From Deltaproteobacteria bacterium TL4 (GTDB lineage Bacteria > SAR324 > NAC60-12), in the NCBI GenBank assembly GCA_051382335.1, contig JBBCAX010000135.1, forward strand, positions 1-46,582: 46,582 nt of DNA. The letters are read 5' to 3'. The notes under the pieces were generated by a model, which searched no databases, was not told the origin of the DNA, and worked only from the letters and a program-made list of their open reading frames with translations. The stretch's first letter is position 1; every line of letters begins with the position of its first letter. Position numbers and translations under genes: made by a program. Below, piece after piece: positions 13,494 to 26,857 of this stretch.

Positions 13494-13813
13494 TGCCTTC
13501 GTTTACTTCCATTTGAGTCAGTAAGGATGGCTTGGCTTATTTGACCGTGAAACGCGGTTCGCAGCAGCAGTTGCGCTATTTTGCTTTGGTCTCCCCTTTA
13601 AAATCTCCTAAGCCGTATCCTGACTGATCCATCAAAAAGTGAGTAAAGCGAGGGATAAAAACGTCATTCAAGCCCTCATCTTCTACCAAGTCCAAGAACT
13701 CTGTGGAATGATTCCACGTTGACTTTCCTTGATAAAAAACCACGGGGATAATCGCTTTAAGCCTTTGTTGGTCCGGTGTTTCTTTGAACGAGTTATCCCA
13801 AATCCGGCACAGG

Positions 13814-13918
13814 TATAGTGCTCAAGATAAGTTTTGTCCTGGGAGCGAGGGCGTCCCGCCCTCCGGTGAGGGCAAGATGCCCTCGCTCCCAGGGAAAAAA
13901 CTTTCCTGGACAGCTATA
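13814..13918. mobile_element. MITE family A, copy 3, with TA target-site duplication
   Basis: Removing it restores cacaggtacttgag, colinear with the intact paralog (cacatatatttgag). Confidence 0.9.
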
Positions 13919-13924
13919 CTTGAG

Positions 13925-14047
13925 GGGGTTGGGTCTAACTTCGGCCAGGGGTAGCCTCGGGTTTCGTCCCGAGGAACAATGTGCGCAGTATCCCCTGGGA
14001 CGAAACCCAGGGCTACCGTCAAAATGGCCGAACTTAGAGGCAACCCC
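13925..14047. mobile_element. MITE family B (GGGGTTG...CAACCCC termini, internal GTAG-type palindrome) with 8-bp target-site duplication
   Basis: tacttgag at 13917-13924 and 14048-14055; nested inverted repeats ggtagcc..gggtttcgtccc / gggacgaaaccc..ggctacc. Confidence 0.85.
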
Positions 14048-14158
14048 TACTTGAGCAAACGGAACCGCAGCCATTTCTCAGGAGAGGACTGATGCTCAAA
14101 CAGCAAATAGGGGTATGGATTTTGTCTTGAGTCGCTTTTTTCATGGGAAGGTCTCGTG

Positions 14159-14352
14159 TATAGACGTTCATTTAAATAAATTCAGAAAACTCATCCTGTC
14201 GCGAGATCCGTTTAAACAACGCTGTTTCAGGAGTGCCAAAGCTTGCTTTGGCCAGAAAGGCGAAGGCCTTGCTTTGGCTTTGGCCAAAGCAAGCTTTGGC
14301 ACTCCACAGTCTGGGTTAGACTCAAAGGAATTTATTTAAATGAACATCTATA
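14159..14352. mobile_element. MITE family C with 25-bp terminal inverted repeats and TA duplication
   Basis: tatagacgttcatttaaataaattc / gaatttatttaaatgaacatctata (1 mismatch); internal palindrome ggagtgccaaagcttgctttggcca...tggccaaagcaagctttggcactcc; absent from paralogous site near 16798. Confidence 0.85.
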
Positions 14353-14497
14353 GTTTCGATTTGGGATACATCGTCAACGTACCTAAACACCAAAAACCAA
14401 ACAAGGCAAATATTCCTTAAACAGGAACATTGAAGGAGAAGAGGCTAATTCAACTTTCTGGAGTGTTCTCGTAATAAAATACAGAAAAGCTCAACGA

Positions 14498-15508
14498 CTA
14501 CAATAGTTGCTGTTTTAGTTGTTCAAGCATCGACTCTAATTCCTCCATTGTTTTCGCCATCAACGCTTCTTTTGAGTTCTGAGTTTGCTTAAGCACTAAT
14601 TGAAAAGCTCTAACCTGTCCAATCAAGTCACCTTTCTCCAGTCCTTCTTCTCGTCCTTCTTCTCGTCCTTCTTCTCGTCCTTCTTCTCGTCCTTTTTGCA
14701 GTCCTTTTTGCAGTCCTTTTTGCAGTCCTTTTTGCAGTCCTTCTTCTCTGCCTTCTTTTCTGCCTTCAAGCTTTCCCATGCCATAAGACGATTCCACCAT
14801 ACTTGCCTGATAATGCAAATCATCAACATAAGACTCATAAGTGGCTCTTTCCTCCTCAGGAAGTTTCATAATATCCAATTTGTCTTTTGCTTCTTTGAGT
14901 CCCTTGGCCTGAAATTCCGTTTTGATTTCCTCGTGTTTCAAAAAATAAATCCATTCGTCCAGGGGATCTTTAGCGTGATCATCAAACTGATTCACTTTGA
15001 TCAAATAATATTCAGGATAAATCTCATAAATCTTTTGTTTATGATAAAGTTCCTTTTGACTCTCACTTAATTGAAGCTCATCGCTTTTATGAATTCCCTT
15101 AAATGTCGTGGTTCCCCTATAGACATAATCGGCTCCCTGTCCCAGATCAAAATAAAGGATATTGATCGAAATCACCTTCATGATAGTGGAATAAGGTTCG
15201 GACTCATGAATATGTTCGGTGACGATTCTGGAGGTTCCATATAAGATTCTTTGGAGATAATCCTGTTCTCTTTCGTACTGAACTTCAATGAGAATAATAT
15301 CGCCACGGGAATCTCGAACTTTCAGATCAATTCTGTTAAATTTATCCTTGTCGTGTTTCTTCTCTCCCTCACTTTCCAGAATTTCCAGAATCAGGATCTC
15401 CTCTTTCAAAAGCTCACTCAGAAAGCCTTCCAAAATACTGAAATTCGCTTTGCTTCTTAAAAGGCGTTTCATGGCCCAATCAAAAGTAATCAGCCTTCTT
15501 TTTGCCAT
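14498..15508 (-). CDS. Rpn-family PD-(D/E)XK nuclease/putative transposase (PDDEXK_2-like)
   Basis: FDWAMKRLL, RIDLKV..ILIEVQ, LDEWIYFLK; C-terminal GREEG/GLQKG repeats. Confidence 0.85.
   Translation of the reverse strand: MAKRRLITFDWAMKRLLRSKANFSILEGFLSELLKEEILILEILESEGEKKHDKDKFNRIDLKVRDSRGDIILIEVQYEREQDYLQRILYGTSRIVTEHIHESEPYSTIMKVISINILYFDLGQGADYVYRGTTTFKGIHKSDELQLSESQKELYHKQKIYEIYPEYYLIKVNQFDDHAKDPLDEWIYFLKHEEIKTEFQAKGLKEAKDKLDIMKLPEEERATYESYVDDLHYQASMVESSYGMGKLEGRKEGREEGLQKGLQKGLQKGLQKGREEGREEGREEGREEGLEKGDLIGQVRAFQLVLKQTQNSKEALMAKTMEELESMLEQLKQQLL
14641..14762. repeat. 12-nt coding tandem repeats (GREE and GLQK units)
   Basis: tcgtccttcttc and cagtcctttttg units in tandem. Confidence 0.9.
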
Positions 15509-15708
15509 CAGGTCTCCTACAGGTTAAGGGATTGCTCCTAAAGAATCTCAAACGCGTCAATGCTGCTATTCGCTTAAGAATATCTCCTTTTCAGCCTGGG
15601 AGCAAGACGTATTTTGGTGCTCTGACAGGTCATGCGAAACGATTCCTTGAGGTCTGAGAAAGAGGATGCTTGAAGGGAGAACCTAAAGTGCCTGTCCCCA
15701 TCTCCCTT
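15374..15708. repeat. Direct repeat copy 2 (matches 1..353)
   Basis: Alignment by eye with the window start. Confidence 0.9.
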
Positions 15709-15728
15709 CGTCACTCTTCTTGTACTCG

Positions 15729-16784
15729 TTACAAAAGTTGTTGTTTCAGTTGCTCCAGCATGGACACTAAATCTTCCATTGTTTTTGCCATCAACGCTTC
15801 TTTTGAATTCTGGGCTTGTTTCAGTATTAATTGAAAGGCTCTGACTTGTCCTATTAAATCACCTTTCTCCAAGCCTTCCTGACGTCCTTCCTGACGTCCT
15901 TCCTGACGTCCTTCCTGACGTCCTTTTTGCAGTCCTTTTTGCAGTCCTTTTTGCAGTCCTTCCTGACGTCCTTTTTGCAGTCCTCGTTGTTCCCCTTCTA
16001 TTCGTAGTTGTTCCGCGGCATTCATGATTTTTTCTCCTAATTTTTGTGAGTGCGCTTCTTGCGCGATCGTTTGTTGGACTTCTTGAACCGAAACACCTTC
16101 AATGTTCATTAAGTATATCATGAAAAATATTTCATAATCAATGCCTTCATTTGCTTCCATTTGAGTCAGTAAACGCGCAAAGCGGCTGAGTGCCTTTTTT
16201 ATCTGACCGTGAAATGACGTTCGGAGTAACAGTTGCGCGATTTGGGCTTTAGTCTCCCCTTTAAAATCTGCTAATCCAGATCTTGATTGATCAATCAAAA
16301 AGTGAGCGAATCGCGGAATGAAAACAGCATTCAAGCCATCCTGCTCTACTAAATCCAGGAACTCTGTAGAAGGGGTCCAGACGGACTTCCCCTGATAAAA
16401 AACCGTTGGGATAATGGCTTTTAGCTTTTGTTGATCGGGATGCTCCTTAAACGAGTTATCCCAAATCCGGCACATATATTTGAGTAAACGGAATCTGACC
16501 CATTTATCAGGAGAGGACTGGTGCTCAAACAGCAAATAAACAAGCACTTCCCGTTGGGTGTTTTGGAGCTCAACCTGAAACAACAAATCCGATTCACTGG
16601 CTTGGTATTCCTCATCAATGAAGGCCTTTTCAATCAATCTCAAGGAACTCCAGTCGAGTTTTTCCACCAACTCCGAGGGCAGATAACTCTGAAGAAAACT
16701 CGCGGCTTCCTTGGTATCAGAAAAGACCGTTTTGAAAAGCTTGTCGTGTGGGTTATGAATTGTGTCTTGAGTGGATTTTTTCAT
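15729..16784 (-). CDS. Rpn-family recombination-promoting nuclease (YhgA/Transposase_31-like)
   Basis: HNPHDKLFK, SDLLF, YLLFEHQS, RLLKYM, IIPTVFYQG..W; ATG at 16784 preferred over the track's 16853. Confidence 0.88.
   Translation of the reverse strand: MKKSTQDTIHNPHDKLFKTVFSDTKEAASFLQSYLPSELVEKLDWSSLRLIEKAFIDEEYQASESDLLFQVELQNTQREVLVYLLFEHQSSPDKWVRFRLLKYMCRIWDNSFKEHPDQQKLKAIIPTVFYQGKSVWTPSTEFLDLVEQDGLNAVFIPRFAHFLIDQSRSGLADFKGETKAQIAQLLLRTSFHGQIKKALSRFARLLTQMEANEGIDYEIFFMIYLMNIEGVSVQEVQQTIAQEAHSQKLGEKIMNAAEQLRIEGEQRGLQKGRQEGLQKGLQKGLQKGRQEGRQEGRQEGRQEGLEKGDLIGQVRAFQLILKQAQNSKEALMAKTMEDLVSMLEQLKQQLL
15873..15983. repeat. 12-nt coding tandem repeats (GRQE and GLQK units)
   Basis: ccttcctgacgt and cctttttgcagt units. 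Confidence 0.9.
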
Positions 16785-16908
16785 GAGAAAGTCTCGTCTG
16801 GTTTCGATATCAGGATACCTCAGCAACGTACCTAAACACCACATACCAAACAAGGCAAATATTCCTTAAATAAGGACATTAAAGGAGACGATGTCCTCGT
16901 ATTCCCAA

Positions 16909-16975
16909 GTAGGGTGCCGCTTAAGCGCAGCGAGCGCACCACCGTAGGGTGGCGCTTAAGCGCAGCGAGCGCACC
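16909..16975 (+). repeat. Two tandem GTAG-family REPs
   Basis: gtagggtg(c/g)cgcttaagcgcagcgagcgcacc at 16909-16940 and 16944-16975. Confidence 0.88.
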
Positions 16976-17121
16976 AAAACCTGATTTTATTCGTACCCTC
17001 TTGAAACTCGTTTAAGCCGGGACACCTGATGGTAGGCCGGAACTACGTGTTCGGCAAACTCAACGCTCAGAAAAGCGGGGCCTGTAATCCCCGCCTACCA
17101 ATGTTCCGTTTTAAGGGGGTA

Positions 17122-17424
17122 GCCGTCCAAACACAATGCAAATGATCCGGTAACAACACCCAGGCATTGATCTCAAAAGGATAATTTTCTCTTGTTTTCA
17201 CAATCATAGACCGTAACATCTCCCGAAAAATCGGTTCCGTTAAGAACGGTCTCCGTTGATATGTCACCACGGTAAAAAAGTAGGTATAATGCTCAAGATA
17301 AGTTTTGTCCTGGGAGCGCAGGCGTCCCGCCCGCTTTTGCGGGCAAGATGCCCGCGCTCCCAGGGAAAAAATTTTCCTGGACAGCTATACTTCCCGTTTG
17401 TTTCCATCGACGATAATTCGACAT
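17122..17424 (-). pseudogene. rayT: REP-associated tyrosine transposase (RAYT/TnpA-REP) remnant, MITE-interrupted and 3'-truncated
   Basis: Excising 17285-17389 (keeping one TA) gives MSNYRRWKQTGSTYFFTVVTYQRRPFL...FEINAWVLLPDHLHCVWT with the HUH motif; GGAGAG RBS upstream; flanked by REPs in opposite orientation. Confidence 0.85.
17285..17389. mobile_element. MITE family A, copy 4, inserted at TA in the RAYT gene
   Basis: Same arms as 13814..13918; core variant; removal restores the RAYT reading frame. Confidence 0.9.
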
Positions 17425-17450
17425 ATTTTTGCTCTCCCCAAAGATTTGGC

Positions 17451-17481
17451 GGTGCGCTCGCTGCGCTTAAGCACACCCTAC
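17451..17481 (-). repeat. GTAG-family REP between RAYT and the DGR
   Basis: ggtgcgctcgctgcgcttaagcacaccctac. Confidence 0.85.
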
Positions 17482-17535
17482 TGATGGCGGGAACCTTTAA
17501 AAAATAATCAAAAATCAAATAATCCAATACCCAAG

Positions 17536-17676
17536 TCACTGTCCACCTCGGACGCAACGGACATAGTACGTATTAGTCTTATTGCTGCTGTCCACGTAAC
17601 CATTGTAGAAGTACACGTACCACGCATAGCTCGTAAGGTTAGCGTCGGCAGTGGACGACCAATAGTACGACGACTC
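17536..17676 (-). repeat. DGR variable repeat VR1
   Basis: 141-nt match to TR 19483..19623 with 15 mismatches, all at TR adenines (coding strand). Confidence 0.97.
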
Positions 17677-17973
17677 TGTATTGGGAAAATAAGTTGTATT
17701 GATCGCTGGGCTGTAAGTAGAAGTATCCACAATAGATTCAAGTTCACGGTAATGCGGCAGTCGCCAGTCAGTTTTTCCTCCCAAATTCAAGGCTTCACAG
17801 TAATTCAAGGCCGCTTCCCAGGTGCGGGTAACCCCATCATCTTGTTTTTGCCACACTAAATGAGTATTGTTATCTCTGACAGTTTCATTGCCGTTATCCG
17901 TGTATCCCGCATAAACGGGAGTCGTCATTCCCAGCACCAGCATTCCTGTGATCATAATATTTCTGAGTTTCAT
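17536..17973 (-). CDS. DGR target 1: secreted single-domain DUF1566 (Lcl C-terminal, C-type-lectin-like) protein
   Basis: Signal peptide MKLRNIMITGMLVLGMTTPVYA; YTDNG..LVWQK..WEAALNYC..DWRLP..EL..YWSST..YVRCVR; AAGGA RBS before ATG 17973 (track starts at 17988). Confidence 0.9.
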   Translation of the reverse strand: MKLRNIMITGMLVLGMTTPVYAGYTDNGNETVRDNNTHLVWQKQDDGVTRTWEAALNYCEALNLGGKTDWRLPHYRELESIVDTSTYSPAINTTYFPNTESSYYWSSTADANLTSYAWYVYFYNGYVDSSNKTNTYYVRCVRGGQ

Positions 17974-17984
17974 AATTTTTTCCT

Positions 17985-19511
17985 TCATTTAGGTTTATCC
18001 ATAAAAACCATTTCTGTGATCACCCGTTTTTTTAAACCCGGACGATAATATCCTTCTTCTCCCACCACCAACCAGGATAAATTCAGGCTCAACGCCCGTT
18101 GTTTGTATAAACGCAAAAGCTTCAGAGGAAAGCCACATCTCCCTATTTTCCTCACCTTGCAGATTTCCAATTTCAATCCAAACAGTTTTGATACCCTCTC
18201 CGCTTCCTCCTCATAAAACTCACAAAATTTACCTACCTGGAAAAAGATCAGGTAGGAGGAAAAACGTTGTTTAAACCAGCGATACTGGGATAACAGGTTC
18301 AGAGGAACATAGGCAGGTTCGTACAGGGGGATTAATTTTTTGTCATCCCCTACCCGAAAAATCCATCCTAACCAAGAATATTGTTCCCACAAGGATTGAA
18401 TCAGATTCCAGGAATCCGCCTGCTGGAAATGCCCCAGGTACGAAGCCAGCATTTGTCGGAGTTCATTCCTCTGTTCCTGTTTCAGACAGAGATGCAGGTA
18501 TTTCTGCTTCCCTATCCCCTTTTGCTGGATCATTTTCCTTTTTGTCTCCACCACCTTCACATGAAAGTTTTCGACCACTCGGTGTCGTACCAATTTGTAT
18601 TGAGGACGCACGATGTATCCCAAAAAATCGGATCCTTCGCTCACTCGTTTCAGGATTACCCCTGGCTTGATCTGCAATTCCAAACGCTTTAACAGAAACT
18701 CTTCAATGACTTCTTGCCAGTGTAATAATTCTTCACGGTCTTCACTCAGCAGAATAAAATCATCCATATATCGCAGATAAAAACGGCATTTCAACTGATG
18801 TTTTACAAATTGATCAAGTTCATTGAGATACACATTGGCAAAAAACTGGGAGGTTAAGTTTCCAATGGGTAACCCCTTGTTGATTCCCGACTGAAACAAA
18901 GTTTTATGAGGAGGAATCTTTTCCAGTAATCCAGGAACCCCTTTGTAAAAATAATCGCGAGTGCAGTCATGAAAAAGAATCCGCGCTGTCAAGCCCAGTA
19001 ACAAAGGGTCTTCCAACTTTCCTTGAATCAGTTCAAACAATATTCCACGATCAACGCTCATAAAAAATCCTCGAATATCCAGTTGCAGGAACCATCCTGG
19101 AATCCGATTTCCACGGGAAACCCTAGCCATAAAGGACTGAAGACGCTCAACGGCCGCATGGGTTCCCTTGTTTTTACGGCAAGCATAGGAATCAAAAATA
19201 AACTTCGGTTCCCAGATTGCTTCCAGGCGCGGCACCAACAGATGATGCACCACACGGTCACGAAAGTTAGCGGCAAAGACCTCCCTAAGTTTGGGATCAG
19301 TGACTACAAAACACAGAGATCGGGATGGCTCATAAAAGCCTTGTTCAAGGGATTCCTCCAATTGAAACAGATTTCCAAAAAGATCTGCTTCAAATCTTAG
19401 GGTATTGATGGTTCCACGTTTACGTTTGCGGCATGAATAATACGCTTCATACAGCGAACGAAACGAAAATAAACCATCCAAATCACTTTCCACCTCGGAC
19501 GCAACGGACAT
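17985..19511 (-). CDS. DGR reverse transcriptase with C-terminal MutS-domain-I-like extension
   Basis: KLREVFAANFRDRVVHH, SYACRKNKGTHAA, LQLDIRGFF, GLPIGNLTSQFFANVYL, YLRYMDDF, DFLGY; C-terminal LIFFQVGKFCEFYEEEAERVSKLFGL..CGFP; exact start uncertain (overlaps TR). Confidence 0.95.
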   Translation of the reverse strand: MSVASEVESDLDGLFSFRSLYEAYYSCRKRKRGTINTLRFEADLFGNLFQLEESLEQGFYEPSRSLCFVVTDPKLREVFAANFRDRVVHHLLVPRLEAIWEPKFIFDSYACRKNKGTHAAVERLQSFMARVSRGNRIPGWFLQLDIRGFFMSVDRGILFELIQGKLEDPLLLGLTARILFHDCTRDYFYKGVPGLLEKIPPHKTLFQSGINKGLPIGNLTSQFFANVYLNELDQFVKHQLKCRFYLRYMDDFILLSEDREELLHWQEVIEEFLLKRLELQIKPGVILKRVSEGSDFLGYIVRPQYKLVRHRVVENFHVKVVETKRKMIQQKGIGKQKYLHLCLKQEQRNELRQMLASYLGHFQQADSWNLIQSLWEQYSWLGWIFRVGDDKKLIPLYEPAYVPLNLLSQYRWFKQRFSSYLIFFQVGKFCEFYEEEAERVSKLFGLKLEICKVRKIGRCGFPLKLLRLYKQRALSLNLSWLVVGEEGYYRPGLKKRVITEMVFMDKPK

Positions 19512-19623
19512 AGTTCGTATTAGTCTTATTGTTGTTGTTCACGTTACCATTGTTGAAGTTCACGTTCCACGCATTGCTCGTATTGTTAGCGTTGGTAGTG
19601 GACGACCAATAGTTCGACGACTC
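19483..19623 (-). ncRNA. DGR template repeat (TR)
   Basis: Between avd and RT; in VR frame reads ESSNYWSSTTNANNTSNAWNVNFNNGNVNNNNKTNTNYVRCVRGGK* with 16 AAC/AAT codons. Confidence 0.96.
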
Positions 19624-19627
19624 ATTT

Positions 19628-19724
19628 CGTCCATTCACTTGTTCGGGCTTTCGCCCCACCTTCTTCCGATCCCGAAAGTACGAAAAAATGTATGATTATC
19701 CCCTAAATCAGGGGGGAATGGACG
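19628..19724 (-). ncRNA. Putative structured 5' leader of the DGR TR-RNA
   Basis: 9-bp closing pair cgtccattc(19628-36)/gaatggacg(19716-24) enclosing GGGC-GAAA-GCCC (19645-56) and cccct/agggg (19700-14) hairpins. Confidence 0.55.
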
Positions 19725-19754
19725 CACAGTGATCTTAAGCACGCTCATCAGCCA

Positions 19755-20126
19755 TCAAGTGACTGGTGATTCCGGCTTTTTCCCTTTTTGGCTTTTCAGC
19801 CATCCCTCACTCTGCTTACAAATATCGGTTATCAGGTGAGCGGCCTGTTGAAATTGAGCAAAGCTCTTAAACGCCTTGATCTCCTTGCCAATCAGCAAAG
19901 TGGTCTTCATGGCTTCACTTTGGTTTCTTAATTCAGTCAAGCTGGCATATTTATCCTGTTCCGAATTTGCCTTGATGACACTAGTCACCAATTGACGTGA
20001 AAGTTCACGCATATCCTGACCAATGGAGTATTTATGATAGCGAGCGAAATCCCTGACCATGTTTTCAATCAAAACAGCCAATTCCATGGTTTTTTTATAA
20101 ATCGGTAAATTTTCGTAATAAGCCAT
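19755..20126 (-). CDS. avd: DGR accessory variability determinant (Avd-like four-helix bundle)
   Basis: 123 aa, basic; LPIYKK..F.RYHKYSIG..R pattern and terminal GW; position upstream of TR-RT. Confidence 0.85.
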   Translation of the reverse strand: MAYYENLPIYKKTMELAVLIENMVRDFARYHKYSIGQDMRELSRQLVTSVIKANSEQDKYASLTELRNQSEAMKTTLLIGKEIKAFKSFAQFQQAAHLITDICKQSEGWLKSQKGKKPESPVT

Positions 20127-20128
20127 AT

Positions 20129-20443
20129 TTATTTGACAAGCCTGATGATTTCAGTAATGTCGCGTTCCTTGTCAGCAGCTTGTAAAGCAATTGCCACGGA
20201 GTGCCCGCCACGCAGCAGTTTACCCACATAGGCATCCAAACCTGACAGAGGAAAACCTCCAATCACTATGGGTAATTGAATCGTACCTGCCATATTTAGT
20301 TTTAGTCCCGTAATCGCGGAAACGCTATGTGCGTCTTCGCCTATGACTTGCATAAAGACTCCTACCTGCATCAATAAGATACAGTCTTGAACACTTTCCT
20401 TGAGTTCCTGATAACGTTTTGCTAATTTTTCAGAAAATACCAT
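20129..20443 (-). CDS. Standalone MutS domain I-like (MSL-type) DGR accessory protein
   Basis: DCILLMQVGVFMQVIGEDAHSVSAITGLKL..GGFPLSGLDAYVGKLLRGGHSVAIALQ matches the MutS N-terminal pattern; GAAGGAGG RBS before ATG 20443. Confidence 0.8.
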   Translation of the reverse strand: MVFSEKLAKRYQELKESVQDCILLMQVGVFMQVIGEDAHSVSAITGLKLNMAGTIQLPIVIGGFPLSGLDAYVGKLLRGGHSVAIALQAADKERDITEIIRLVK

Positions 20444-20455
20444 TATTCCTCCTTC

Positions 20456-20486
20456 AAAAAAAAAATCGTCCGCCCCAAGGGCTGAC
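20456..20486 (-). terminator. Hairpin plus U-tract downstream of VR2 (intrinsic terminator and/or DGR target-recognition hairpin)
   Basis: Coding strand GTCAGCCC-TTG-GGGCGGAC (1 mismatch), then GA and T10. Confidence 0.55.
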
Positions 20487-20513
20487 AAATAATCAAATAA
20501 TCAAATACCCAAG

Positions 20514-20653
20514 TCACTGTCCACCTCGGACGCAACGGACATAGTACGTACTAGTCTTATTGCTGTAGTTCACGCGACCATAGCCGAAGTACACGTACCA
20601 CGCATAGCTCGTATCGTTAGCGTAGGTAGTGGACGACCAATAGTACGACGACT
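20514..20653 (-). repeat. DGR variable repeat VR2
   Basis: 140-nt match to TR with 16 mismatches, all at TR adenines. Confidence 0.97.
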
Positions 20654-23600
20654 TTGTATTGAGAAAATAAGTTGTATTGATCGCTGGATTATACCTTCCA
20701 ACATTTACAATGCTTATGAGTTGACGACGATTGGGCAACGTCCAATCGGTGTAGCCTCCCAAGGACAGATTATCACAATATGTTCCGGCGGCTGACCAGG
20801 TATAAGTACTGTTGTTATCTTCTTTTTGCCACATCAGCCCTGTTACATTATCCGTGATGGTGCTGTTGCCATTGTCAGTGTAAGAAGGGGTGTTTTGCGT
20901 ATAATCGTGGTCTTCTCCAAAAGTCGTGGTATAGGAAGTTGTTTGTCCGGTATCTGGTATCGCCTGATAATCGTTGATACCGACACTGGCGGCACTGGAA
21001 CTTTCTCCCCAATTATTCATGCTGAACGCCAGCAGAGAGGTAGCCAGGGAGGGCAAAACCGTATTACTGGAGAAGGTGTAAGTATAAGTGGCACTGCCAT
21101 TGGCTGTAATTTGGGTGATGGCAGTTTCGCTTTGTTTGGTCGTGCTGCTGCTGCCCCAATAAAGCGTGTAATGGGAGATATTTGACTCATCACTGGCTTT
21201 GCTGATCGTCACATCGCCTCCGACTCTTCCCCAGCGGCCATCGGTATCTGTAAAAGCCACACTGGTTGCTGTAACTGTGGGGGCAGCATCATTATCAGCG
21301 TTGGTCACACTCACCAAACTTGCGGCAAGCGAGCCATAACCGCTGGTATCACTTGTGCTGGAAAGACTCACCGAAATAGTGTAGGTGATATTGCCATCCT
21401 GTACCGCGTCATCCACGCCTGTGACGATCACCGTCTGATTGGTGTTCCAGTCTGAAGCGGTATAGGTGAGACTGGCGGGCGAAACCGTGCCTTCCGCTGT
21501 TTTGCTCGAAACCACGCTCAACACAACATTGGCCGTGGGTTGGCTATTAAGTTTGACAGTAAAAGTAGCAGTTCCACCAGCTTCAGTCGTGTTGCCGCTG
21601 ATGGCGCTGATGACGAAACCTGGTGAATCATTATCTGTATTGGTGACGGCAACATCATCAGGATTCAACGAGGCATAACCGCTGGTGTCCAGGGTATTGC
21701 CAGTATTGAGGGTGAGTTGAACCGTGTAGCTTTGATTGCCATCGGCAATGTCGTCGTTTACGCCTGTGACTGTGATGGTTTGGTTAGCGTTCCAGTTGGT
21801 GGAGGAGAAAGTTATGCTGGATGGCGAGACAGTTCCTTCGGTCACATCCGATGTGACCACGTCAATCACGACATTGGCTGTGGGTTCACTAGTCAGTTTC
21901 ACTGTGAAAGTGGCCGTTCCTCCCGCTTCGCTTGTGTTGCCGCTGATGACGCTGATGATAAAGCCTGCGGATTCTCCCAGATCGGTATTGGTGACGGCAA
22001 CATCGTCAGGATTGAGTGCTGAATAACCGCTGATATCGGTTGTGGCTTTGGTATTGATGGTGAGTTGGATAGTAAAACTTTGGTTGCCATCGGCAATGTC
22101 GTCATTGACGCCTGTGACTGTGATGGTTTGGTTAGCATTCCAGTTGGTGGAAGTGAAGGTCAGAGATGCTGTTGAAACGGTTCCTTCAGTGGTATCAGAC
22201 GTTGCCACGTCAATTACGACATTGCCCGTAGGTTCGTACATAAGTTTGACAGTAAATGACGCGCTCGAACCATCTTCCGCTGTGTTTCCACTGATGGCGC
22301 TAATAGTGAACCCGGGGTGGTCGTCGTCAATGTTGGTCACAGAGACAGTAGAGGGGGGCAACAAGGCATAACCACTATTATCCAGAGTGCCGACCGTGTT
22401 GAGGGTGAGTTGGATGGTGTAGCTTTGGTTGCCATCAATGACATCATCATTAACTCCGGTTACGGTAACCGTCTGATTGGCATTCCAGTTATCTGAGGTA
22501 AAGATCAGGGAGGAGGGAGAAACGGAGCCTTCAGAAGGATCAGTGCTAACGATAGCCACCACAACATCGCCTGTAGGCTCGGTATTGATTTTAATGGTAA
22601 AGGTGGCGGTTCCGCCTTTTTCGGTGGTCAGGCCGCTGAGCGCGCTGATTCTGAAGCCTGGAAGTTCGTTGTCCTCGTTGATCACGGTAACACTTTCAAG
22701 ACTTAACTGATGGTAGCCGGGATCCTGACTCGTGGTGTTTCCAAAAAGGATCGAAACCCTTTGATTGCCGTCCTCTTCCGAATCGTCGATGCCAGTGAGG
22801 GTGACGGTTTGAGGAGCGTTCCAATTCAGCGGAGTGAAGGTCAGGGTTTGCGGAAAGACTGTGACTTCCGTCGTATCACCGCTGGAAAGGGAAAGGGTAA
22901 CTTCCGCGGTAGGCGCGACATTCAAGCGCACCGTGAAGGTCGCGGTTTCTCCAAATTCATTGGTATTGCCACTGACCGCGCTCACGGTGATCCCGGGTGT
23001 TTCATTATCAATGTTTTCAACCTGGACATCCTCAGGATCCATACCCTTGTAAACGGTATCCTCACTAACCGCGGCGGACAGGACGATGTGATAACGCTGA
23101 TTGCCGTCCGCGGCGGCGTCATCCACACCTTGAACCGTCGCTGTTTGCGGGGTTTCCCAATTGTCAGGAGTGAAACGGAGTTCCTTTTGGAGGATGACAC
23201 CTTCAGCGGCGTTATCACTGGCTAAAGGCACAATTACATCCGCAGTCGGCTGGCTGTGAATCTGAACCGTGAAGGAGGCGGTTTGACCGGATTCTGAGGT
23301 TTTTCCGCTGATAGGGCCAACCGTAAACCCAGGTGAATCGTCATCCACATTGACGACTTTGACATCGTCAGGATTGAGCGTTTGATAATCAGCGTCTTTG
23401 GTAACGACTGTTCCCAGAATCACAGCGTAGCGTTTTTCTCCATCCGCGACGGAGTCATCAACACCAGTGACCATGACGATTTGTTGGGTGCTCCAGTTTT
23501 CCGCGGTGAAGGTCAATTGGGAAGTGGAAACCGTGCCCTCGGTCACCTTGCTGCTGGAAACCGGGAGGACAACGTCATGAGTTGGGATTTGTTTGAGTTT

Positions 23601-23786
23601 GACCGTAAACGTGGCATAAGTTCCGGTTTCCGAGGTTTTGTTGCTGATTGGACTGATGTCAAAGCCCAACGCTCCTGGAATGGGCGTGGGTTCCTGATCA
23701 AAATACTCGTCCTGTAAGCAGGAAGGGATGACTCCCAGCATGAAGAGGAGGAGGAAAAAGAGGTTTGTGAATTGTTGGTTTTTCAT
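20514..23786 (-). CDS. DGR target 2: putative surface lipoprotein with seven Calx-beta-like repeats, a beta-sandwich linker and a C-terminal DUF1566 domain
   Basis: Signal/lipobox-like LLLFMLGVIPS-C; 7x GF.IS.ISG.T.E.G.TATFTVKL..NW...QT.TVTGV.D..DGNQ; IPDTGQ..YTDNG..LMWQK..YWSST..YVRCVRGGQ. Confidence 0.9.
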   Translation of the reverse strand: MKNQQFTNLFFLLLFMLGVIPSCLQDEYFDQEPTPIPGALGFDISPISNKTSETGTYATFTVKLKQIPTHDVVLPVSSSKVTEGTVSTSQLTFTAENWSTQQIVMVTGVDDSVADGEKRYAVILGTVVTKDADYQTLNPDDVKVVNVDDDSPGFTVGPISGKTSESGQTASFTVQIHSQPTADVIVPLASDNAAEGVILQKELRFTPDNWETPQTATVQGVDDAAADGNQRYHIVLSAAVSEDTVYKGMDPEDVQVENIDNETPGITVSAVSGNTNEFGETATFTVRLNVAPTAEVTLSLSSGDTTEVTVFPQTLTFTPLNWNAPQTVTLTGIDDSEEDGNQRVSILFGNTTSQDPGYHQLSLESVTVINEDNELPGFRISALSGLTTEKGGTATFTIKINTEPTGDVVVAIVSTDPSEGSVSPSSLIFTSDNWNANQTVTVTGVNDDVIDGNQSYTIQLTLNTVGTLDNSGYALLPPSTVSVTNIDDDHPGFTISAISGNTAEDGSSASFTVKLMYEPTGNVVIDVATSDTTEGTVSTASLTFTSTNWNANQTITVTGVNDDIADGNQSFTIQLTINTKATTDISGYSALNPDDVAVTNTDLGESAGFIISVISGNTSEAGGTATFTVKLTSEPTANVVIDVVTSDVTEGTVSPSSITFSSTNWNANQTITVTGVNDDIADGNQSYTVQLTLNTGNTLDTSGYASLNPDDVAVTNTDNDSPGFVISAISGNTTEAGGTATFTVKLNSQPTANVVLSVVSSKTAEGTVSPASLTYTASDWNTNQTVIVTGVDDAVQDGNITYTISVSLSSTSDTSGYGSLAASLVSVTNADNDAAPTVTATSVAFTDTDGRWGRVGGDVTISKASDESNISHYTLYWGSSSTTKQSETAITQITANGSATYTYTFSSNTVLPSLATSLLAFSMNNWGESSSAASVGINDYQAIPDTGQTTSYTTTFGEDHDYTQNTPSYTDNGNSTITDNVTGLMWQKEDNNSTYTWSAAGTYCDNLSLGGYTDWTLPNRRQLISIVNVGRYNPAINTTYFLNTKSSYYWSSTTYANDTSYAWYVYFGYGRVNYSNKTSTYYVRCVRGGQ

Positions 23787-24386: not shown

Positions 24387-24457
24387 TTTTTCTCCTTATT
24401 TAGAATGATTCTTTCCTCAGGGAACAAGGAAATTCAAAAATTCCATCGGGTTTTAGT

Positions 24458-24670
24458 GGTGCGCTCGCTGCGCTTAAGCGGCACCCTACTTTTGGTGCGC
24501 TCGCTGCGCTTAAGCGGCACCCTACTTTTGGTGCGCTCGCTGCGCTTAAGCGGCACTCTACTTGGTGCGCTCGCTGCGCTTAAGCGGCACCCTACGGCGG
24601 TGCGCTCGCTGCGCTTAAGCGGCACCCTACCTTTTTATGGTGCGCTCGCTGCGCTTAAGTGGCACCCTCC
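24458..24670 (-). repeat. Tandem array of six 32-nt GTAG-family REPs
   Basis: Units start at 24458, 24494, 24530, 24564, 24599, 24639; spacers 4, 4, 2, 3, 8 nt. Confidence 0.92.
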
Positions 24671-26857
24671 TTACCATTTTTTGTTAAAGGAGAGTTGGAC
24701 TTTGCCTTGGGGGTGAACATCCCAGTGCCAGGAAATGGCGGAGGATGAAGGGGGTTCGGGTTCATCCCAATAAAGCCAGCCGGTCAAGGCGGCGAGTCCG
24801 AGGGTTAGACCTAAATATCCCTGTGTTTGTTCCTTCATTGTGGCAATTTCAGCCATTTTCTCATCTTCTTGCGTTCGATAGGCTTGAGCGTCATGGAGCG
24901 TTTTCGCGGTCTTGATCTTGTCACTGAGTTGTTGTCTCTCGGTGTTCGCGTTTTCCACCGCGGTGACTGTGGCATAAAGCAAACCGGTTGAGATCAGCGT
25001 TACCCCCAACGAACTTCGCCACTTCCATTTCCAGCTTTGGCGGGCTTGGTAATAGTCGGTGAGTTCCAAGTGAATTTCCTGAGAGAAGGTTTCTCCCGGT
25101 TTCAAAACAAGGGCTTGCTTTTGTTCCACATATTTATGGCTGGAGTGGGTGACGTAGAGTTCATAGGTGCCTGACTCCACCTCCAAAGCAAAAATTCCCC
25201 GATCAGGAGAGTTATCAGTTTTGTTCCAGGATTCCTTACCGATGAGATTGACCACAAAATGACCATCTTCGTCCTCAACTAAAGCATCCCGAATTATTGT
25301 AAGTTTCAATGAAGAGGGTCTCAGTTCCATTTTGATGTCAATGAGCGTTTGCTGGTTTGGCAGGATTTCAAAAGATTTTTCAACAGGAACGTACTCCTGA
25401 TGAGTCACTTTGAGGGTGTAAGGGCCGATGGGAAGTTGCTTTTCCTCAACAGGTAAGAATAAGGTTTGAGTCGCGGGGACGTAAGTTCCTCCTGTTAAGG
25501 TAATGACCGATCCTTGAGGACAGCCTCGCAGGGTCAAGCGTCCTTGAATGGGAGCCAAACGGGGAGCTAACGAAACATCCTCAGTGGCAACCTGAAGCTG
25601 TTTTTGGAAAACCTCAAACCCTTCTTTTTCTATTTGAATCTGATGAGGACCTTTGGTGGTTTGCAGCGTGAGTGGAGTGTTTCCCACGACTTGTTGATCG
25701 ACCATGATTTTTGCGCCACCAGGTGTGCTGCCGATGATCAGTTCCGGGATTTTGACCAGGGTCACCTTGTATTTCGTTGTTTTTCCTCCCTGCACCGTTA
25801 GGGTTTTTTCGAGTGTTTCATATTTGGTTTTTTGAATTTTTAATTGATGTGTTCCTTCAGTCACTTGAAGCTTAACCGGGGTTTCTCCTTTGGCAATTCC
25901 CTCCAGAAAGACATGCGCCTGAGCGGGGAGAGTCGTAATTTCCAGGGTTCCAAACCGCTTCAGTTTAGCCTCCAGAAGCGTGTTTTTTATTTGAGGATCG
26001 ACTTCAAGGTTTTGGGTGAAAGGGGCATAGCCTGTTAACCGGATTTCTACCAGATGCCGCCCCGAGGTCAGCTTGAGATCCACCGGAGCTTTTCCAACCG
26101 GTTTTTGATCGACTGAAACTTCAGCGTTATAGGGAGTACTTGTGATTAAGACATTGTAAAGCAACGGAGCAAGCGTCAAATCCAGACGCGTCAACTCGGA
26201 AGAGGTGAGCTTGAAAGTTTGAGTGATACCGAGATTTTCATGACGGAGATCGAGTGTGTGTTCTCCGTAAGGGATGGCTTTTAACAAGGCGGGTGTTTTT
26301 TGTTCCAGCACAATCCCATCCAGGGTAATTTCCGCTTCCGGCGGGGTGGAGGTGAGGAACACTTGTCCTGTCTCCTCAGACGTTGGTTGAGGGGCGTTCT
26401 CGCCTATAACTTTCGCCACCAACTCGGAAATTTTTCCGTTGAGTTGGAAGGTATTGCATTTTTGGCAGTAGTAGGTTTTTACATTCTTGTCTTCCAGACC
26501 GATGCGGGTGACGGTCAATTGGGTATCGTCGCCTTCCCGAATGATCTGCAAACGGAACAAATTTTCCACTTGCAGGATTTCCTGAACCCGTCGAATACAT
26601 TGATCTTCAGTACATTCCTCCGCGTCCAGGGTTTTAAAGGCTTCATCCTGGGCTTGCTCAAATTGTTTTTCGGAAACCAGATTAAACTGGTCGGCCAAAC
26701 GCTCCTGAAACGTATTGAATAAAATGCCTTGCTGCCCCGCGGAAATATCGCCCACCACCGCTAAGGGAAAGAGGGCCGCTTGTTCTTTTTGAGCATAAAC
26801 CGGGTGGGCCAACAGGCTGGATACAAGCACTAAACTGAAATATTTTAAGACGTTCAT
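24671..26857 (-). CDS. Exported multi-PEGA-domain protein with C-terminal hydrophobic segments
   Basis: Signal peptide; repeated STPPEAEITLDG/STPYNAEVSVD/TLPAQAHVFLEG/STPGGAKIMVD..G.TP..L..G.H..GY/F. Confidence 0.85.
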   Translation of the reverse strand: MNVLKYFSLVLVSSLLAHPVYAQKEQAALFPLAVVGDISAGQQGILFNTFQERLADQFNLVSEKQFEQAQDEAFKTLDAEECTEDQCIRRVQEILQVENLFRLQIIREGDDTQLTVTRIGLEDKNVKTYYCQKCNTFQLNGKISELVAKVIGENAPQPTSEETGQVFLTSTPPEAEITLDGIVLEQKTPALLKAIPYGEHTLDLRHENLGITQTFKLTSSELTRLDLTLAPLLYNVLITSTPYNAEVSVDQKPVGKAPVDLKLTSGRHLVEIRLTGYAPFTQNLEVDPQIKNTLLEAKLKRFGTLEITTLPAQAHVFLEGIAKGETPVKLQVTEGTHQLKIQKTKYETLEKTLTVQGGKTTKYKVTLVKIPELIIGSTPGGAKIMVDQQVVGNTPLTLQTTKGPHQIQIEKEGFEVFQKQLQVATEDVSLAPRLAPIQGRLTLRGCPQGSVITLTGGTYVPATQTLFLPVEEKQLPIGPYTLKVTHQEYVPVEKSFEILPNQQTLIDIKMELRPSSLKLTIIRDALVEDEDGHFVVNLIGKESWNKTDNSPDRGIFALEVESGTYELYVTHSSHKYVEQKQALVLKPGETFSQEIHLELTDYYQARQSWKWKWRSSLGVTLISTGLLYATVTAVENANTERQQLSDKIKTAKTLHDAQAYRTQEDEKMAEIATMKEQTQGYLGLTLGLAALTGWLYWDEPEPPSSSAISWHWDVHPQGKVQLSFNKKW

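Follow-up and report, generated by a model that had tools for sequence, protein, structure and literature searches.

A chromosomal diversity-generating retroelement with MutS-like modules and seven candidate Lcl_C targets in a SAR324-like genome

The DNA analysed in the present study (the window) is a stretch of 46,582 nucleotides of contig C135 (JBBCAX010000135.1) from the genome of Deltaproteobacteria bacterium TL4 (G000; GCA_051382335.1), the assembly of which amounts to 6.59 Mb in 445 contigs. The window contains the cassette of a diversity-generating retroelement (DGR) comprising a template repeat (TR), a reverse transcriptase (RT) gene, the accessory genes avd and MSL (MutS-like), and two target genes ending in variable repeats (VRs). 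According to the list of open reading frames (ORFs) and the Pfam matches, the gene order on the minus (coding) strand, where all cassette genes are located, is target 2, MSL, avd, TR, RT and target 1. The features are as follows, with coordinates of the whole window:

20514..23786, minus: target 2, 1090 aa; Lcl_C at E 2e-36 and Calx-beta at E 9e-16 (Pfam)
20514..20653, minus: VR2; 16 differences from the TR, all at TR adenines
20487..20510, minus: 8-nt tandem repeat array directly 3′ of VR2, with units like GATTATTT
20468..20486, minus: GC-rich DNA hairpin 3′ of the VR2 array, then a T run; z −4.4
20129..20488, minus: MSL accessory gene; MutS_I at E 4e-13, Taq MutS domain I at E 3e-9
19755..20126, minus: avd, 123 aa; Pfam bAvd at E 8e-13, 49.3 bits against a cut-off of 40
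19483..19623, minus: TR, AAC/AAT-rich, 48 adenines in 141 nt
19493..19512, minus: GC-rich 3′ end common to the TR and VRs, putative initiation of mutagenic homing site (IMH*/IMH)
17985..19511, minus: DGR RT, 508 aa; RVT_1, YMDD at residues 248-251
18084..18293, minus: MutS domain I fused to the RT C-terminus, G427-x-F429-x-E431 kept
17536..17988, minus: target 1, 150 aa; signal peptide predicted by eye, Lcl_C
17536..17676, minus: VR1; 15 differences from the TR, all at TR adenines
17502..17532, minus: 8-nt tandem repeat array directly 3′ of VR1

The ORFs and Pfam matches agree with the initial annotation of this DNA in that the RT with its YMDD motif, Avd and both targets are open and co-oriented; that annotation passed over the MSL gene and the MutS-I tail of the RT. 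The MSL ORF sits between target 2 and avd, and its first in-frame ATG is found at about 20443. Comparison of Avd with NCBIfam NF033474 gave E 1.4e-9 and 38 bits, below the cut-off of 80. The sequences of the TR and VRs diverge 3′ of the common IMH/IMH* stretch 19493-19512, and the RT reading frame has its first ATG (19511) in the TR's 3′ end. Close homologues of the RT start with similar TR-derived residues in the RT frame; in more distant homologues the reading of the TR in the VR frame continues without a break into the RT, and this difference makes the assigned start codon a provisional one. About 20 nt 5′ of the TR, inspection by eye showed a small GC hairpin (19645-19660) whose loop is GAAA and which could bound the TR RNA or cDNA.

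An ungapped comparison on the coding strand revealed 15 mismatches between the TR and VR1 (8 to T, 5 to G and 2 to C) and 16 between the TR and VR2, where the first difference at a base other than adenine (non-A) lies one base beyond the repeat, at 20654. All 31 mismatches fall at TR adenines, exactly as the initial annotation had counted and placed them. The hypergeometric chance of all mismatches of the 125-nt core falling on adenines is 4e-8 for VR1 and 1e-8 for VR2. Each of the 42 core adenines occupies codon position 1 or 2 and none position 3, and adenine substitution could alter 25 codons of the core.

The best match of the RT in the PDB is 8ub7 (E 1e-40), the next RT following at 2e-15. 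The entry 8ub7 is presumably the Bordetella enzyme, which is consistent with the 328-aa Brt of the BPP-1 locus (L054). In the phylogenetic analysis, the RT grouped with BPP-1 Brt and with loci bearing a TR and VR, separate from the group II intron-like RTs (Shimodaira–Hasegawa-like approximate likelihood ratio test, SH-aLRT, 100), which is inside the DGR clade, where the initial annotation expected it; the RT of contig C34 was its sister (SH-aLRT 97). The placement is to be taken with some reserve, the tree being a quick maximum-likelihood one without bootstrap, built from 81 RTs (a chosen subset of loci plus ten database proteins). Assignment to group II intron, retron or DRT enzymes was rejected: the NCBIfam matches are far below cut-off (TIGR04416, 107 against 300) and the tree places the RT elsewhere. 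In 40 related genomes, a DGR-like RT was found in one (G004, 40% identity), with weak or no matches in the others. With the TR/VR pair, a DGR-clade RT, avd and Lcl_C targets all present, the completeness claimed initially holds, and the cassette is almost certainly a DGR, namely a chromosomal one with Lcl_C (CLec2) targets and MSL.

The initial annotation proposed that one TR diversifies the two flanking genes and recommended a genome-wide search with the TR. Both local VRs stand, but the limit to two does not. The TR core was compared without gaps with the whole assembly, VR-like sites being those that differ from it at no more than 30 of the 83 non-A positions. Besides the TR, 20 such sites were found; seven have 0-1 non-A differences and the other 13 have 9-29. 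The seven TR-matched VRs, two in the cassette and five on four other contigs, are:

C135:17673 (VR1)
C135:20651 (VR2)
C34:57617
C34:60176
C187:713
C172:10231
C53:13203

Their non-A differences over the 83 sites are 0, 0, 0, 0, 0, 0 and 1, with 13-22 differences at adenines, and the next-best VR has 9 non-A differences. Among themselves the seven agree at 82-83 of the 83 non-A positions. The 180 nt upstream are 44-71% alike in 20 of the 21 pairs (C187/C53, 82%). Divergent upstream DNA together with matching non-A VR sites is the pattern expected of conversion tracts rather than gene copies. The remote targets of 144, 1248, 849 and 356 aa each have an Lcl_C end; that of C53 is broken into several frames upstream of the VR. 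The similarity to the TR begins sharply at the TR 5′ end, and the C172 match ends within the GC-rich 3′ end.

With about two dozen Lcl_C domains in the genome, the TR and VRs could in principle be alike through plain paralogy of Lcl_C genes or gene conversion between them, with no adenine-directed mutagenesis. The confinement of mismatches to TR adenines (P from 2e-7 to 3e-13 across the seven VRs) refutes this explanation, as do the position of the TR outside any Lcl_C gene, between avd and RT, and the abrupt fall of identity 5′ of the tract; its probability is negligible.

The gene order of C34, target-MSL-avd-RT-target, is that of the C135 cassette, and the DNA of MSL, avd and RT is approximately 64-66% identical in the two. 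On C34 the TR has been lost through a deletion that begins at avd codon 71 and ends at about RT codon 72, and both C34 VRs match the TR of the C135 cassette at 83/83 non-A sites. The RT cores of C135 and C34 are 65.9% identical. Among 1450 TR pairs from loci with 55-69.9% RT identity, which are related and not independent, none comes within one non-A difference (minimum 4, medians 17-23.5). Since no comparable pair shares a TR so closely, the C34 match requires either service in trans or a TR-to-TR conversion that preceded the deletion. Downstream of the C34 cassette (C34:50805-56336; L216:1809-7337), a gene for a 1843-aa protein with six Lcl_C domains is located, followed by an orphan Lcl_C fragment.

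It is conceivable that the DGR acts on its two flanking genes only and that other near-identical TR copies, for example the TR that the C34 cassette had prior to its deletion, wrote the five remote VRs, which are now frozen. C34 once had its own TR position, the assembly is fragmented, and frozen VRs do exist in the genome, since twelve further Lcl_C ends carry 9-29 non-A differences; copies of a TR within a genome can, moreover, be homogenised by gene conversion. However, the assembly contains no second TR of the same class, contigs C187, C172 and C53 give no match to RT, avd or MSL, and TRs of RTs as divergent as those of C135 and C34 are never so alike. This alternative is considered quite unlikely. 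The cassette TR very probably wrote all seven VRs, and the two C34 targets would, as part of that whole explanation, probably have been served in trans.

Several points weigh against this assignment. The C53 target may be a pseudogene or a mis-assembly, because the gene is split over several frames. A second, unassembled TR copy could serve the remote VRs, because the assembly lies in 445 contigs. TR-to-TR gene conversion preceding the C34 deletion would equally explain the C34 match. The analysis is based on a single consensus sequence, no sequencing run being listed for 17400-20900, which bears on present-day activity. In this connection, the element may be intact but silent now, the VRs recording recent past activity; this concerns timing only and is compatible with the same anatomy. 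The sister cassette and several RTs of another DGR class in the genome are broken, which fits such silence. On the other hand, the frames of both local targets and of RT, Avd and MSL are open, and non-A drift is absent from six of the seven VRs, which indicates recent homing, and present silence is regarded as rather improbable.

The best explanation, to which we assign a probability of about 85%, is that the template of an intact chromosomal DGR (target-MSL-avd-TR-RT-target) likely rewrites the C-terminal lectin-like tips of seven genes by reverse transcription that is mutagenic at adenines. By analogy with established DGR biology, the RT and Avd would copy TR RNA into cDNA with errors opposite adenines, and the cDNA would replace the VR from the GC-rich IMH upstream.

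The target 1 structure model (predicted local distance difference test score, pLDDT, 96) has a predicted C-type-lectin fold. The fold search returned the C-terminal domain of Legionella Lcl as the best hit (8q4e; E 4e-5, template modelling score 0.68), followed by C-type lectins; the sequence search against the PDB gave no match at E up to 1. The N-terminus of target 2 has a lipoprotein signal with a lipobox, predicted by eye, its stalk consists of about seven Calx-beta-like repeats of about 115 aa (repeat family D2; six repeat motifs were picked up), and its C-terminus is Lcl_C (DUF1566). The products are predicted to be binding proteins, secreted or anchored by a lipid, whose stalks differ and whose diversified tip is common to all. 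Repeats of the target 2 type occur in a large gene family (C116, C53, C289, C37, C222, C391, C291, C41 and others).

Directly after the stop codon of all seven targets there is a T-rich array, in which two or three exact G[AG]TTATT[TG] units lie inside a longer and looser 8-nt run; the TR has none of the exact units. The exact 8-mer pair occurs 18 times in the genome against approximately three expected, 13 times after Lcl_C VR-type ends and five times elsewhere. A cross-locus test started from 239 TR/VR pairs in 149 loci, of which 234 were kept after short, N-containing and duplicate flanks had been dropped, or 144 with one pair per locus. The periodicity was compared with mononucleotide shuffles, z above 3 being significant, and the loci are related. 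The threshold was exceeded after 40/144 VRs, 1/144 TRs and 8/250 control ends of other long ORFs, with a period of 8 in 33 of the 40 VR flanks. The GATTATTT-like version was found in 5/10 loci with MutS-I-tailed RTs, 5/134 other loci and 1/250 controls.

The array, present after each VR and absent after the TR, may form part of the signal marking the recipient. That an 8-nt-period T-rich array just 3′ of the IMH is a widespread DGR target-recognition element telling VR from TR is a speculative proposal that we consider doubtful in this general form. It is weakened by the lack of significant periodicity after 104/144 VRs, including the VR flank of BPP-1, where the threshold was not reached, and by the presence of the 8-mer after old VRs that no longer match the TR (for example C60, C140 and C358). 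Passages of PMC3240598 describe the IMH of BPP-1 as including a 21-bp element, and the array may be this distal, direction-setting part of the IMH under another description. The Avd ring might use it as a landing pad. A literature search, which included PMC3531188, gave no confirmation that short repeats flank genes for Avd-related four-helix bundles.

The array may instead be an RNA element, i.e. a terminator region or the leader of the next gene, often avd, and no homing signal at all. A hairpin and a T run come next in several targets, and avd directly follows the VR in 129/234 related VRs, as such a role would have it. Yet the significant repeat is about equally frequent where avd is elsewhere (29/101) and where it directly follows (36/129), and none of the seven arrays in this genome directly precedes avd. 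Loci without a detected avd account for only 4/234 VRs, none of them significant (0/4). The rarity of the array at other long-ORF ends also speaks against an RNA element, as does a different 8-mer, CTTTTACC, noted by eye after 5/8 VR-like and 0/7 TR-like sites of another DGR class in the same genome (FGE). An RNA role is likewise rated as doubtful.

Folding of the DNA after the seven VRs gave z −4.4 for VR2 (0/200 shuffles as good); in the remaining six, z lay between −1.9 and 0.8. The stretch folded at C34:57617 was cut inside a possible hairpin. Because the hairpin is significant in one of the seven, neither a conserved hairpin nor its absence is claimed. According to passages of the survey of Wu et al. 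(PMC5758913), a GC-rich inverted repeat or hairpin lies downstream of the IMH in 34% of DGRs. Keyword searches and term look-ups in main-text passages of the open literature, supplements and subscription papers excluded, found no description of the array; the passages looked up in PMC5758913 ('direct repeat', 0), PMC3240598, PMC4372165, PMC8144416 and PMC11661182 make no mention of it. The DGR integration step is described as unknown in a passage of PMC12875486.

The RT tail aligns with Taq MutS, G-K-F-C-E corresponding to G-D-F-Y-E. Phe-X-Glu is the mismatch-reading motif of MutS. Among the best 120 RT homologues, G427 is kept in 120, F or Y at 429 in 116 and E431 in 118. By a strict test, MutS-I-tailed RTs are present in 14 of 213 RT loci and in 0/80 viral loci. 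No separate MSL was detected in the DNA of the 14 tailed-RT loci, several of which are short. Locus L058 encodes an MSL 67% identical to that of the cassette, with an RT match running to residue 450, and may be a further case with both MSL and an RT tail. A full-length mutS-like gene of the host, with a MutS_I match in a 908-aa frame, is located on contig C78.

The MutS-I domains on the RT and MSL might bind the mismatched cDNA/VR duplex and shield this heteroduplex from host MutS, a suggestion made tentatively and held to be less probable than not. It draws on a report (10.1101/2024.11.15.621889, in part) that knockout of the host mutS in Bacteroides raises VR mutagenesis 5-10-fold. Other observations speak against shielding: at the Phe-X-Glu site the MSL reads F-M-Q (F-x-Q), with Gln replacing Glu; no MutS effect appeared in the E. 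coli reconstitution with an 18-nt insertion reporter, according to passages of PMC12875486; and the Bordetella DGR reportedly does not require MutS (text passages of PMC5758913).

In the same survey, as far as its quoted passages go, MSL was counted in 16/372 DGRs and a MutS_I-like RT extension in three, two local targets in 50/372 and non-adjacent targets in 45/372, with maxima of seven non-adjacent (Treponema) and eight tandem targets. Multi-target, remote-target and MSL DGRs are thus already catalogued there, and the accessory set, the remote targets, use in trans, MSL and the RT MutS-I tails all have published precedent. The CLec2/DUF1566 target category 'd', with the Legionella DGR as exemplar, has the same Lcl_C target with a C-terminal VR and the same avd-TR-RT core. 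Architecture D combines a small MSL with avd and lacks HRDC, as here, where the cassette proteins gave no HRDC match. The set likewise includes the RT MutS_I extension and two local plus non-adjacent targets. The present cassette differs in having both a stand-alone MSL and an RT-fused MutS-I, the survey's three tailed RTs being compared without their architectures, and its seven targets (two local and five non-adjacent) stand at the high end.

The DGR of Bordetella phage BPP-1 (mtd-avd-TR-brt) shares the avd-TR-RT order, adenine-only mutagenesis, an AAC-rich TR, a GC-rich IMH and a C-type-lectin target. In contrast to it, the present cassette is chromosomal and multi-target, its RT (32.5% identity) is 180 aa longer and carries MutS-I, the TR overlaps the first ATG of the RT with no TR-RT spacer, and the 8-nt array lies between the IMH and any hairpin. 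Thiohalocapsa PB-PSB1, in the passages available from 10.1101/2023.09.22.558884, also has several DGR classes per genome, with one complete locus per class and degenerate loci; the VRs of the latter match a remote TR at all non-A sites, as here, and were read as diversified in trans. The targets there are conflict-system sensors, unlike those of this SAR324-like host, which are predicted surface proteins carrying Lcl_C tips on stalks of Calx-beta-like or other type, and that study had reads showing diversity, whereas assembly sequence alone was available here.

Other DGR-related sequences were noticed in the genome. Two older groups of Lcl_C VRs (C103:28382, C326:2642 and C140:21107; C60:43204 and C358:1566) each have the same non-A differences from today's TR in common, which would fit writing by former templates gone from the assembly. 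At C115:598-1575, two Lcl_C targets enclose a weak remnant of an RT C-terminus (E 0.005), and the VR of the small target is interrupted by a stop; this is possibly a third, more collapsed cassette. A second class, with FGE-sulfatase (CLec1) targets, was found at C153:3430-6110 (L220) and on C387, C156, C58, C207, C208 and C133. The order on C153 is target (PEGA and FGE-sulfatase), HRDC-like ORF, avd, RT and TR, and its VR differs from the TR at 21 adenines and at no other base. This class comprises seven TR-like copies and eight VR-like sites, and several of its RTs are fragments. The C156 TR fits VRs on C166, C54, C69 and C60, and the C207 TR fits C302 and C394. The gene region of C116 has a VR-like site of the FGE class at its end, which suggests tip swapping between DGR classes.

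The genes flanking the cassette are metabolic, signalling and Rpn-type transposase genes. No phage structural gene was found among 13 window proteins (PHROGs) or 34 (Pfam), in line with the initial annotation, and the window contains no tRNA. A prophage-borne DGR found no support, with no phage genes around the cassette, no phage record covering 80% of the RT and no MutS-I tail in the 80 viral loci, and neither did integration at a tRNA site. Just 3′ of the cassette (13583-16853) lie transposase-like genes of the Rpn/PD-(D/E)XK type, arranged in tandem and containing 12-nt coding repeats, with a decayed copy at 1-300. Palindromic repeats resembling repetitive extragenic palindromes (REP) form two families (24449-24672, 16905-16979, 17445-17472 and 352-394; 3089, 9095, 13814, 17285 and 26967), whose exact cores have 13 and 48 copies in the genome; the VR1 array is followed, about 30 nt further on, by one copy at the place taken by a hairpin in other targets. 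By best hits, the host is SAR324-like, because the nearest named RecA homologues are mostly of the SAR324 cluster (73-75% identity). A keyword search of the literature for SAR324 together with DGR found nothing.

Although ordinary as a DGR, the system is unusually rich: a single template has seven candidate targets, a sister cassette is decaying, and the genome houses a further DGR class. What the seven natural targets have in common, their upstream DNA being unrelated, is the TR tract, the IMH and the 8-nt array, which bears on how a VR is recognised and told from a TR. The keeping of Phe-X-Glu across the 120 RT homologues and the lowering of Bacteroides DGR output by host MutS (10.1101/2024.11.15.621889, in part) bear on the role of MutS-like DGR modules. 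If the proposed role of the array is true, the numerous DGRs that lack a GC hairpin would have an explanation for their homing. In this genome a single TR would then serve seven surface-protein tips as a scattered library, and RT-fused and free MutS-I domains would protect the mismatched intermediate against repair.

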